From the sequence record PV189405.1: DNA of 62,509 nt. One strand, given 5' to 3'. This DNA comes from Escherichia phage vB_EcoP_phi349. The stretch's first letter is position 1, and every line of letters starts with the position of its first letter. The position numbers were made by a program. Below, in pieces: positions 45,001 through 51,000 of this stretch.

Positions 45001-48000
45001 CTTCCTTGAATGCAGCTGCTTTTTTACCAGTGAAGCCCATCACCAGGAAGACGAATCCGTTTTTGGTGATTTGGTACATTGGGCGTTGTTCGCCTTTGGC
45101 GTCGGTGTAGGTAACGTCCTCAAAATTGAGGGCGTTAAATTTCTCTGAGCATTCAATATTTGCAATGGCACGTAATACGTTATCGTGTCGCTTGCAAAAA
45201 TATTCGGCAACGGCAAAGGACGTAGTAACAGCGCGGCCATTGGAAATGGTGATTTCAGGTTGAGAAAGGACTGGGATAGTAGCCATAATGGCAGCCTCCT
45301 TGATTGGTGATTAATAACCACCGCAGGAGGTGAGAAGCTCGCTGGCGGTGGACTGTACAGGGTTCTCACAACTGGCAATCAAGGGAACCAGCCCGACCGA
45401 AGTCGGCCCCATACAGCCCACCATTGATAAGATGTGCGTGTATGTCGATACAAAAAAAGACGCTGGCGCGTCTGTATCGCCTCGATTGTCAGCGGGGTGA
45501 GAATCCCGACACCCGTTTTATAAGGTGTTCGCCCAATATAGCCCCGGCATCACACGCAGTCAATACCGTCCTTTCTCGGAAATGCTTTGGCGATGTGGCA
45601 GGTGGGAGACCCATTTCGACCCGATTCGGCCTACTTATCTTCAGCAATAGTCCCTCGGGCCTCGCCGCTTTACGTGCGACATATTCCCGTCCATGAACCC
45701 TTCACCACACCCCAAAACATTCCCTGTATTGGTCAGCGCCAACTTCCTGCCAGTGTTGCCCGTTCTCACGCCGTTCTCGCTCTCGCGCGGGGATACTCTC
45801 TCATCGACCGGATCGCACCCGATGATACAGCACGTTTACGTGTAGGGGTCTAAACAGGTCATTGACGCTGTAAAGCTCCAGATTGTTAAAGAGCATTTTG
45901 CGGCGGGTTAAGTCGCGCCGTACGACTGATTTATGTAGCCCTGTGTAAGGGCGCGATGTTTCTGGCTTGAAATAAATATAACTTGCGGTTATTTTCATGT
46001 AAATACCGTCGGTGCTTTTTTAAGGACGAGAAATTATTACTTAACTGATTTTTAAAGTGATTTATTTTTTAAGGGGACAGATAACAGGAGGGGATATGCA
46101 AAGAAAAACCCGGCGCATGGGCCGGGCTATTTATCTGGTCCTGTTCTCATTCAGTAGAGTAGGGGCCAAGAAATCGCACTCCGTTGAAGTGAATAAGATG
46201 AGAAGGTGCATCAGCCACCCATACCTCTGTTTCCCATGCGATTTCACCAAGATATCGCCCCATGATGGAGCGATTTGGAAAAGCGGTCACATAGACAAGT
46301 CCGGCTGTTGATCCGGCAAACAGCCTGGCAAGCTCAGCATGCCGCTTCCCATCAACCGGTCCATGACTGGTGACAGACTCAACCAGTAGCAGCCAGTTTT
46401 TCGCAGTAAAATGTAGCACCACATCTGGCATTTTACCGTGTGAATCCACATCAACACCTAGCCCGGCCAGCAGTGGAGCGTCGAAGTAGCCCCACTTTTC
46501 GCCAGTGTCGCCAGCATAGACCAGCACGCTACCCGGAGCAAAACGTGGGGCGAAGTCCTCTATTATGGCACGGATAAGTTCGCTGTGCTCGCCGGGACTG
46601 AGGGTTATTTGCTGGCCCGCAGCAATTTCAACAGGGATACGATTCTGTTCGCGCTCCTTAGCATAGCGGGTAACCAGCGTTTCACGCTCGGCTAAATAGG
46701 TTGCAAGGCTATCGTGCCATGCCGGGCTGCCGAAAGTGCGTAGCATGGACAGAGCAGCAGGTTCGATCTGATAAACAGCCTTCGGGCTGTTCACTGGGCG
46801 ATCGGGCTTGTCCGGATTGTAGAGGGCTACTCCAGCAGCGCAGAACTGATGCATAGACTGGCGGCGGAATGTCTCACGAGTATTGGGTGCGTAGACCTTG
46901 CCGTAGTGCTCCCGAACCCAATTCATGATTGGTGTAATGCCCACAAGCGGATTTTCCGCGTCGGCCCATGCTTTTCCCGGTGTGAGGTTCAGGAGTGCCA
47001 GCAAACACAAAGCAGAACGCTCATTCTGCTGCGCTCTGGGCAGGCCTAAGGATGCTATAATTTGCTGAGCGGCCTCAATATAATCATTTTGGTTGTTCAT
47101 GCAGTCAGAGCTCCTAGCTTAGCGTCAATATGTTCTTGCGTGAGAGTTTCTTGTTGCATAGCCCACTTGCCAAGCTCTATCAGAGTGTCACGGCTTGGGT
47201 ACTTAATCATCTTGAGGTCGGTTGCATTGACCTGTGTATGCCCGTTGAAGCGACGGAAATACTTATCCACTGCGGTAGTGTTCAGGAACACGGCCAAGCC
47301 ACGGGCCAGCGCCTCGGGTAACCCATGTTTGTTCTCATGAAACACGTTCATGTGATTTTCAAATCCCAACACTGAATACTCACTGAAGGTAGCAGGATCA
47401 ACGACGCTTGCTACCACTCGGCGCTTTTCCTCCTTCGACGAGAAACGACGCACCACACAATAAAAACCGTTCGGGTAAAGCCACTTTTCTGTCTCGTCGT
47501 TGCGCATGATTGCGTTGGGTTTCTTCAAACCTTCCACAGGCCAGACAGTGCTACTCATACTCAAATGGCTCGGGTAGATCAGGGGAACAGTTCCTTCTTC
47601 TGGCATGCTGCGCAAATGAGCTTTCAGTCGGAAATCAACTATCGGTCCGGTCGATACCTTCACGCCAATATCAGCCAGCGAACATTGTACGGCAGATGAT
47701 AACTCAATGGTGCTTTTCTCGAGCGTGGTCGGCACATGAATAAACCGCTCCGAATCGTCCGGGTACACAATCTGGTCAAATGGGTGTTCGTAGGTGACCA
47801 GGTCAAAAAAGCTATCATCGGTCGAAGTTGTGACTGTAACAGCCTCCTGACGGCCTCCACGCTCCAGGCGGATGATAATATTTTCCTGCAACACATCGTC
47901 ATCCCTGAAAGCTTTGCTACGTGATTCGAACAAATGAATATGGCGGATTGCTGCCCGCTCAAGTATGAAATTACGGAACGGACGGTAATACGGTCCGTTG

Positions 48001-51000
48001 CAGAAACTACGTGGGATTATGGCCACTATCTGCCCGCCAGGTGCAACCTCACCTACAGCCAGTGCAACAAAGGCGGAATACAGATTTACCGTCTCGATAC
48101 CGACAGTGCGAAGAGCCTGCCGGTGGGCTGACTGGCTATTGATCTTCTTGTAAGGCGGATTAAGTATTGCATGGGTATAACCTCGATCCTGTAGACCTTC
48201 GGCGGTTGCCAGCTCAATATAATCCCCTTCGATGATGCGGGGCGTCACTCTCCTGTACCCGGTTAAGTGCTTCGCAAGGTGACCACACAGCTTTTTGTCG
48301 ATTTCGTAGGCTGTTGCCTCGACAGACTCAAAGCCAAACTCGCCAACCAGCCAACGGTCGAGGAAGGCGCAAGACAGTGCGCCTAAACCAGCGCCTGCGT
48401 CCAGTAGACGGCAAGTTTTCATTGTGCTCGGTGGAAACAAGGAGGCCATAAAACGGGCCACGCCAGAAGGCGTCATGAACTGGCCGAACTCTGCTTTGTG
48501 TTTACGCGCGGTACGGGGAGACAGCTCGCGACGCACGCTGTCTGCGACGTCTAGCTTTTGAAGCATAACTAATCCTCTTTACGTGGCATGATGATGCCAA
48601 CGTGCTTTTGACATCCTCCACATTCTTCAGGCGTGAAGGATGTCAAATCACTCTGTGAGCTCAATCAAAAGTCTCATCATTCCACTGCGATTTGATGACC
48701 TTTCCGACAAACTGGCAGTTTTCGTTACACTCAATCATGTCGAATCGTGGGTTGAGCGGCTCCAGGTACGCTTTACCGCTCTCACGAATGAATCGTTTGA
48801 AGGTAAATTCATCGCCGTTCATTCGGGCCACGCAAAAATCGCCATCCTCGATTTCCCGTTCAGGGTCAACGAGTATCAGCATACCTTCAGGGAAGCTGGG
48901 TTTACCACCCTGCGGTGCGGTCATTGAATGCCCCTTGACCTCCAGCCAGAACGACCTGTCACTGGCTTTTGTGGTGGTGGAGATCCATTTAATCGCATCT
49001 TTTGCGGTGTACGAAATATCATCCATTGAGAATGCGCCAGCTTGTACGCAGGAGAGTAACGGATATTCGTAAGCGGGGACACGAGTTAATGGCTCTTCAA
49101 TTGCGAGCGCCATTTCTGCAATAGATTTTGCCAGGCTGGGACTGAAATCTCCGACCTTTACATTCAGTATCTTAGCAAGCTGTGCTGCGTGGCTGGCATT
49201 TATGGCGTTGATGCCAGCCATTAGCTGATTAACAGCGCTTTGGGTAACACCTAATTCATAGGCTAATGATTCCTGCGACAGGCCTAACTCTTTCTTTTTA
49301 GCGTTAAAAATACTTTTCAGACGCTTGGCGTCTTCCAGTTGCTCAGGGGTTAACGGTTTCTTTTTCATGTTCATACCATATCACCTTTGGTTATATGTAA
49401 TGAAATATCTGCGGTGTTGACATTTTAATAACTGTGCGTAATGATATGGGCATTTTGAAGGAGTCAGTTATGGCGATGAAAAAAGAGACCCTGGCTGATT
49501 ACGTATACAGGTTCGGCCAAAAGAAAGCCGCTAAGGACTTTGGCGTGGCGCAGAGTGCAATCAGTAAAGCGCTTCTCGTCGGACGAGAAATATACGTCAA
49601 AACCTTTGATGACGGCACAGTTGAGGCGGAAGAGGTTCGTCCGTTCCCTGCGTTCGTAAGAGGCGATGATTAATCCTGGACACACAGCCCATCGGAGGTG
49701 TGAGTGAACAGGCAAATCAAAACGGTTATGCCCGAGCAGTACTGTGATGCTGATCGGGACTGGATACAGGAGCAATTGTTACAGCTAGACCCGACCACCC
49801 GGGTAAAAATTGCAGCAGAGTACGCGAGAGTGTACCAGGAAGAGTGGGACAAGGAGCCTGTATCGTTCAGGAAGGGCAACAGGGCAAGACGGAGCGCCAA
49901 CACCCGGTTACGGGTGTATGTCCAGAAGTACGCGAGAGCCAGCCGTGGCTGGATGCTTTCGCCAGTAGCGGTACGGAAGTTTCCCCCGACACCATGATGG
50001 CGGTTAGTTGCGCTAGAAATAATTTCACATGCAACTAATTTCCTGAAAGGAAGCGAGGAGGGGGTAAGGGGGTGGAGTCGTTGGTAAGGCCTGTATCCCT
50101 TGGCCTAGGCCAGAAGGCAGGTACATAGGTTAGGTAGATCACTGTATAAGCGCGCGATAGTTCCTGGTGAAATAATTATCGAGCTAACTATTGAGTGATA
50201 AACTATGTCAGCAGCAACCAAATCGGCACTGATCCGTACACTGAGCACTGTACCACTGAGAACAGAGGAGCGTTACAGCTTTCTGGCTGATGTCGTAACG
50301 ATCCTTGAGTCACAGGGGATGCATGTGGCAAGCAATGTCACAGTAAGAATCGATGGCAGAAATTTCCGTGTTGATATTCTCGCAACAGCAAAAACTGGTG
50401 GGAGTGTGGCTATCGAGATCGATCGTAGCTCTCCGCGACCCCGCTCAGTCATGAAATTGCGTGAATTGGCACGTCGTGGCACTGAAGGCTTTGTGTTGCT
50501 TCGAATGCCAAAGAAACTGACCAGTTATAGCGATGCTGGGATCGATATCATCCCGGCGAATGGCAAGGGGGCGTCATGCTGAAAATCACCCCAAACTTTG
50601 CTCAGGAGCGCGGTTTAAACCAGCTGCGGCACCAGTGGAAACAGCATCGCACGTACCTGATGTATGCACCCACTGGCTCTGGCAAAACTGGTCTTGCAGC
50701 ATTCGTCACTGCCGGAATGGTTGAACGTGGTATGCGGGTGATGTTTGTCTGTCCGTACACCATCCTGCTGAACCAGACAGCGGAACGTTTCACCGAATAC
50801 GGTTTGCCGTGGGAAGAAATCAGTTTTGTATGGCGTGATCACCCTAACTATGACCCGTCACGACTGATTCAGATTGCCAGTGCCGACACGCTGATCCGTC
50901 GTGAGTTTCCTGACAACATCGATCTGCTGATCATCGATGAAGCACACATGAAGCGTCGTGCGTTACTTGAGGTTATCCGGGACAGAGACATCAGGGTTCT

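Follow-up and report, generated by a model that had tools for sequence, protein, structure and literature searches.

The EcoGIII restriction-modification genes next to the cI repressor gene of the Stx2a-converting phage vB_EcoP_phi349

The prototype restriction-modification (R-M) systems recognizing CTGCAG are PstI of Providencia stuartii and BsuBI of Bacillus subtilis, and in PstI the two genes are transcribed divergently. SdaI, the sole member of the endonuclease family with a solved structure, recognizes the 8-bp sequence CCTGCAGG. Genes located behind the repressor gene cI and expressed in the lysogen are known from phage lambda (rexAB) and phage 933W (stk), and Rex is an abortive-infection system. 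An R-M pair beside cI is already known as well: EcoGIII, which belongs to the Stx2a prophage of Escherichia coli O104:H4 strain C227-11, was described in 2012 and has been in experimental use since. Here we analyze the methyltransferase gene (M) and the endonuclease gene (R) next to cI in Escherichia phage vB_EcoP_phi349 (sequence record PV189405.1), a Stx2a-converting Oslovirus with stx2A annotated at about 55479. The complete stretch of 62,509 nucleotides (nt) that was analyzed is referred to as the window.

The explanation that accounts best for the locus, and in which we have high confidence, is that it represents EcoGIII of Stx2a lambdoid phages, a captured promoterless M-R cassette that is read from a probable cI-M-R message and restricts unmethylated DNA. 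The identities of the genes and the anatomy of the locus are established; specificity, restriction and methylation in lysogens are established through the literature on identical proteins.

Identity of the methyltransferase and the endonuclease

Comparison with P13374, a Stx2a phage from the O104:H4 outbreak of 2011, revealed no amino-acid difference in M, R or cI (100% identity). On the nucleotide level a stretch of 3.7 kb shows 100% identity to phi346, where it even has the same coordinates, as well as to PA2, VT2phi_272 and others, and 99.9% identity to P13374. Furthermore, the rare codons of the REBASE EcoGIII genes have been tabulated in the literature: codons 5 and 17 of M are given as CUA and CCC, and codons 15, 21 and 22 of R as AUA, CCC and AGA, respectively. 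The rare codons of M and R in the window are located at exactly the tabulated positions, and the start codons are the same as those of the REBASE entries. Given the identity of M, R and cI with P13374 and the rare-codon match to REBASE, we therefore regard it as nearly certain that the system is EcoGIII and acts as a CTGCAG-specific type IIP R-M system. It is the system of the C227-11 prophage, in the same phage type and at the same position, and there is no difference of substance. A single residue (W203V) separates R of the window from an early draft record of C227-11 (P0096). No such difference exists to P13374, which comes from the same outbreak, and W203V is possibly an error of the draft assembly. 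EcoGIII is carried by 147 of 5,426 complete E. coli genomes (about 2–3%), always on the chromosome, and it is also present in many Stx2a, Stx1a and Shigella phages.

M (47097..48566, minus strand) encodes M.EcoGIII, a gamma-class N6-adenine DNA methyltransferase of 489 amino acids (aa) with the reported product CTGC(m6A)G, m6A being N6-methyladenine. The open reading frame (ORF), which is identical to that of P13374, matches the Eco57I/TaqI-like N6-methyltransferase domain of Pfam (PF07669, 3.3e-9) and, over its full length, the REBASE-derived Type II methyltransferase model of PADLOC (MTase_II, 5e-248). The motifs can be read directly from the protein: FGQFMTP (motif X) at about aa 27–33, DAGAGLG (motif I) at aa 56 and NPPY (motif IV) at aa 136, with about 350 aa on the C-terminal side of NPPY. 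This is the order X-I...IV...TRD (target recognition domain) of the gamma class. NCBIfam lacks a specific model for R and matched M only below threshold; a sequence search of the PDB with M gave one weak match, Atu0636. The best 120 matches listed for M all have at least 81% identity; among the matches listed, relatives with 82–89% identity come from Morganella, Enterobacter, Salmonella, Aeromonas, Snodgrassella and Pseudomonas.

R (46147..47100, minus strand) encodes R.EcoGIII, a type IIP endonuclease of the BsuBI/PstI family with 317 aa, composed of an N-terminal winged helix-turn-helix domain and a C-terminal domain of the PD-(D/E)XK type. The winged-helix domain is matched by PF17728 (BsuBI_PstI_RE_N, 1.2e-54), residues 7–143 aligning with profile positions 3–139 of 140, and the nuclease domain by the full profile of PF06616 (BsuBI_PstI_RE, 4.6e-61). 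The PADLOC model for Type II endonucleases (REase) covers the full length of the protein (1.6e-168). Through these full-length Pfam matches R falls into the same endonuclease family as PstI and BsuBI. SdaI (PDB 2ixs) has the same two-domain layout as R and matches it with 41.6% identity over 308 aligned residues (1.2e-77).

We aligned R of the window with 52 diverse full-length representatives of the family and SdaI (n = 54). In this alignment P225 is conserved in 54, D226 in 53 and E241 in 50 of the 54 sequences, and D226 and E241 align with D233 and E248 of SdaI. Lys251 of SdaI sets this enzyme apart from R, which has a threonine at the position (T244), and from most of the family: the alignment contains T in 26 and K in 3 of the 54 sequences. 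With P225, D226 and E241 conserved and T244 typical of the family, the catalytic core of R is intact. We considered Thr244 as a sign of an inactive enzyme and rejected this idea, since threonine is the family norm.

A preliminary description of the locus had proposed a PstI/BsuBI-like type II R-M operon made up of a gamma-class N6-adenine methyltransferase and a BsuBI/PstI-type endonuclease of 317 aa, and had pointed out the resemblance to a CTGCAG-specific system reported for a Stx2 prophage of O104:H4. The family matches in Pfam and PADLOC bear this out, as do motif I before NPPY with the long C-terminal region of M and the presence of both catalytic residues and family homology in R. The O104:H4 system turned out to be the same one.

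Fused relatives of R were also observed. Among the 60 closest 50%-cluster representatives, 19 (P0241, P0244, P0258 and others) are single chains of about 810–890 aa in which an N-terminal M part is joined to a C-terminal R part. Such fusions cannot be regarded as new, since PADLOC already has an 840-aa model spanning both parts.

Methylation, restriction and the role of the pair

According to the literature, most of which cites Fang et al. 2012 (Nat Biotechnol; cited in PMC6602927, PMC3893438, PMC7736820), CTGC(m6A)G methylation was found at 100% of the sites in two O111 lysogens, and CTGCAG methylation amounts to 98.8% in an O145 lysogen versus 0% in a strain without the system. The same literature further states that cloned M methylates CTGCAG and that R is biochemically active. 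Cloned EcoGIII is reported there to restrict the conjugal entry of pESBL about 10^4-fold, with methylated sites uncut. EcoGIII also protects against lambda-like phages, and its deletion alters the expression of about 1,950 genes. The earlier proposal that the operon is a defence system is supported by the reported phage protection, plasmid restriction and lysogen methylation.

In the mechanism that we propose, M.EcoGIII would methylate the adenine of CTGCAG on both strands and R.EcoGIII would cut unmethylated CTGCAG. The chromosome of the lysogen and the 10 prophage sites would be protected, and incoming unmethylated phage or plasmid DNA would be cut. Methylation throughout the genome would shift host gene expression, too.

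CTGCAG occurs 10 times in the window. Sites had been announced near 15750 and 52463, and two of the 10 are indeed located at 15748 and 52464. All sites lie within 5466..15748 and 52464..59892, leaving a CTGCAG-free stretch of 36.7 kb (15749..52463) for which the Markov model expects about 8.6 sites; for 10 uniformly placed sites the probability of such a gap is about 0.0015. Over the whole window the count of 10 compares with 15 to 24 expected. Other palindromes are scarce as well: GCCGGC is absent from the window (about 22 expected under the Markov model) and GGCGCC occurs twice (about 17 expected). This scarcity may reflect a general bias of the host or avoidance of other restriction systems.

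Defence could also be a by-product, if the pair were selected mainly because it stabilizes the prophage through post-segregational killing (addiction) or because it controls host genes epigenetically. Type II R-M systems can act as addiction modules, and such behavior is known for this type. The shape of deletion derivatives points in the same direction. In E. coli G8 and SCU-104 (L004 4147..4449, L012 3717..4022) the same cI is followed by a C-terminal R remnant of 100 aa, and M is missing; M was lost together with most of R and never alone, as expected if loss of M alone were lethal. An epigenetic role is favored by the change in expression of about 1,950 genes upon deletion of the system that the literature gives. 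However, the same literature presents restriction of phages and plasmids as demonstrated, and the roles are not mutually exclusive. We therefore consider it possible but rather unlikely that addiction or epigenetic control is the main role; as side-roles both are compatible with the data.

Cassette, slot and transcription behind cI

The cI gene (48661..49374, minus strand) is the first gene of the immunity operon and encodes a repressor of 237 aa, identified by its ORF, by Pfam matches to HTH_3 and Peptidase_S24 (9.5e-29) and by identity with P13374. It lies 94 nt upstream of M on the same strand, and cro (Pfam Cro, 4.8e-34) is divergent from cI. M and R share 4 nt at 47097..47100 (ATGA, read gcATGAac), and AGGAG is found 9 nt upstream of the R start. 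In contrast to the divergent PstI genes, M and R are thus arranged in tandem with a 4-nt overlap and without a control protein: apart from a resolvase remnant, the ORF survey revealed no gene for a helix-turn-helix controller (C-protein) between or beside M and R.

Downstream of R the consensus scan and folding identified an intrinsic terminator (46107..46128, minus strand), the equivalent of lambda tIMM, which ends the cI-M-R unit. Its hairpin (46128..46107; -16.2 kcal/mol) is located 19 nt past the R stop codon; the stem comprises 8 bp, 6 of them G-C, and UUUUUCUUU comes after it. Beyond it the scan found a promoter-like site TTTACA-17-TATATT (45975..46003, minus strand), a candidate for pL, which overlaps with an operator-like 19-mer detected by pattern match, ATATAACTTGCGGTTATTT (45976..45994). 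A second operator-like 19-mer with the same half-sites, ATATCACCTTTGGTTATAT (49378..49396, plus strand), is located in the cI-cro control region just upstream of the cI start and adjoins pR at 49417..49445. The two 19-mers resemble OL and OR operators, a reading that is only suggestive because the pattern had been built from these very sites.

The arrangement supports the view that the R-M pair sits between cI and the candidate OL/pL, i.e. in the slot of lambda rexAB. Both the rex position and the 4-nt overlap behind cI on the same strand had been noted in the preliminary description, and the ORF coordinates and the terminator after R agree with it. With lambda rexAB and 933W stk the pair shares slot and logic, namely a position behind cI on the same strand, before the terminator and OL/pL, and protection of the lysogen against phages. 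A sequence relationship does not exist: homology to RexA or RexB is absent, and Pfam and PADLOC place M and R in R-M families only. Unlike Rex, EcoGIII cuts DNA and marks the whole host genome.

The transferable cassette comprises 48607..46146 only. Over exactly this span the nucleotide identity is 87% to Morganella morganii and 77.6% to Pseudomonas syringae. The leader of the cassette (48567..48607, minus strand) was recognized by homology and translation as the 3'-end remnant of a serine-resolvase gene (KHVGIIMPRKED, then stop). Besides a small conserved hairpin, the leader includes the Shine-Dalgarno sequence of M. Its translation matches the C-termini of the resolvases of P. syringae (...LYKHVGVITPRQ, then stop) and Morganella (...LYKHVGVIMPREED, then stop). 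These last 12 resolvase codons are all that remains in the phage, and cI is now upstream. The resolvase-M-R units of Morganella and P. syringae have the same gene sizes (489 + 317 or 318 aa) and the same 4-nt overlap. On plasmid-like contigs M-R is found behind the serine resolvase amid genes of plasmids and defence islands (ParA, ArdC, TraC, NikA, Gabija-like). The start of homology at 48607 and the match of the leader to resolvase C-termini point to capture by the phage of a promoterless M-R unit that was broken off inside the resolvase gene. The unit is of the kind seen on the plasmid-like contigs, and it was inserted between cI on one side and the immunity terminator with OL/pL on the other, which is a variable slot.

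Two related prophages of E. coli illustrate the variability of this slot. In one (L003) cI and cro are the same (98.7%) and the slot contains other cargo (2797..4918), namely genes for a membrane protein of 53 aa, for a ClpP-like protease of the SDH type and for HicAB, together with two unknown genes. Homology between L003 and the window breaks off at 48647 and returns at 46125; the second homologous part includes a similar terminator hairpin. In the other (L005) the R-M genes are present at 95.4%, cro is different, as is the N-terminal part of cI, and R is followed by a gene for a Panacea-domain protein and a partner gene (1989..2839). No PADLOC defence model matched the alternative cargo proteins of these two prophages, so that support for regarding the slot behind cI as a defence hotspot is only partial.

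The comparison also bears on the terminator, which had been described before as the R-M operon's own. A terminator does follow R, but it lies outside the stretch shared with the plasmid-type cassettes, and a similar, though not identical, hairpin follows the unrelated cargo of L003. For these reasons it can most likely be assigned to the phage slot, that is to the immunity operon, and not to the cassette.

At the junction between cI and the cassette, folding revealed an inverted repeat with a 16-bp stem and a 9-nt loop (48607..48647, minus strand). The fold of the cI-M spacer has -33.7 kcal/mol and z = -3.95, with 0 of 200 shuffles as stable. The hairpin fills exactly the gap between the end of homology to the prophage with alternative cargo (48647) and the beginning of homology to the plasmid cassette (48607). 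A U-run after the hairpin was found on neither strand, so it does not qualify as a canonical terminator. The prophage with the other immunity type has retained it, as have, with a different loop, the deletion derivatives; a near-identical hairpin is located downstream of trbC on IncI1 plasmids. The hairpin could serve in processing or attenuation or in protein binding, or it could be the scar of a recombination event. It seems doubtful to us that it is a functional RNA or DNA element, either tuning the ratio of repressor to R-M proteins via processing or attenuation of the message or serving as recombination point for cargo exchange. An ORF of 31 aa annotated in phi346 (48569..48664, minus strand) was rejected as most likely no gene: the resolvase remnant makes up its 3' part, and the remainder overlaps with the hairpin and the stop codon of cI.

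Concerning transcription, we scanned the minus strand from 49374 to 48566 with a threshold of at least 9 of 12 consensus matches for promoters and found no promoter-like or terminator-like site from cI to M. Co-transcription of M-R with cI from pRM and pRE is probable. For pRM, transcription is likely on account of the anatomy of the locus and of CTGCAG methylation in lysogens. In the lysogen the cI-M-R message would most likely start at pRM, and during establishment at pRE, and end at 46128..46107. M and then R would be translationally coupled via the ATGA overlap, and it is plausible that coupling of M before R provides a safeguard during establishment. Capture of the cassette with cI in the upstream place lends support to expression by read-through, but by analogy only. 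In P. syringae, too, the cassette appears to depend on the upstream gene, because the resolvase stop codon and the start of M are 10 nt apart.

Some points weigh against this interpretation or parts of it. The sequence TTGACA, without any mismatch to the -35 consensus, is present in the cI-M spacer at 48645..48640. Attenuation or processing of the message at the strong cI-M hairpin is conceivable, and expression is then perhaps not simple read-through. The assignments of pRM and OL are consensus-type matches, the operator pattern having been derived from the two sites that it matches. The likeness to PstI and BsuBI, with the same reported CTGCAG specificity and m6A, is one of family profiles and not of percent identity to the prototypes. 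Finally, in the literature citing Fang et al. 2012 no direct transcript mapping of M-R was found.

M-R might instead be driven by a promoter of its own in the 3' end of cI or in the spacer, independently of pRM, in which case the position behind cI would be incidental. TTGACA would provide a perfect -35 hexamer for it, and the junction hairpin might separate the cI and M-R units. Moreover, the Morganella cassette is about 550 nt away from the nearest intact upstream gene, and some copies may be autonomous. However, no -10 element with more than 2 of 6 matches is present behind TTGACA at a spacing of 16–18 nt, no promoter site reached the threshold in the scanned region, and the leader of the cassette is merely the 41-nt resolvase remnant with its Shine-Dalgarno sequence. 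We consider an own promoter improbable and retain the joint cI-M-R message.

It is hardly conceivable that R is inactive in the phage and M an orphan methyltransferase: disrupted R genes do exist in relatives (a pseudogene-like region annotated for R in ArgO145, the 100-aa remnants) and R has Thr in place of SdaI K251, but its full-length ORF encodes the same protein as in P13374 (100% identity) with the PD...E core conserved, Thr is the residue typical of the family at this position, and the literature states biochemical activity for an R that is reported to be 100% identical to the R of C227-11.

Neighboring features and biological meaning

Downstream of the candidate pL about 700 nt contain no convincing ORF, and no lambda-type N gene is evident there. 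Within this stretch, two Rfam matches above the gathering score were found on the minus strand: the Hfq-binding RNA isrK (45453..45528, 58.7 bits), which has its own terminator (45473..45458), and a C4 antisense RNA (45341..45428, 77.1 bits). Both are located directly ahead of a gene for a Phage_pRha (Rha-family) regulator (44639..45286). This layout resembles c4-ant of P1/P7 and isrK-anrP of Gifsy-1.

The limits of the cassette, the resolvase remnant, the assignment of the terminator to the slot and the junction hairpin are new details and constitute minor additions to a known system. They describe the slot behind cI as a place of interchangeable cargo that is closed by a terminator of similar type. 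For the biology of the host it is established that through a toxin-converting phage the bacterium acquires a barrier to the DNA of other phages and of plasmids, and that EcoGIII re-marks about 2,400–2,900 sites of the host genome with wide transcriptional effects.

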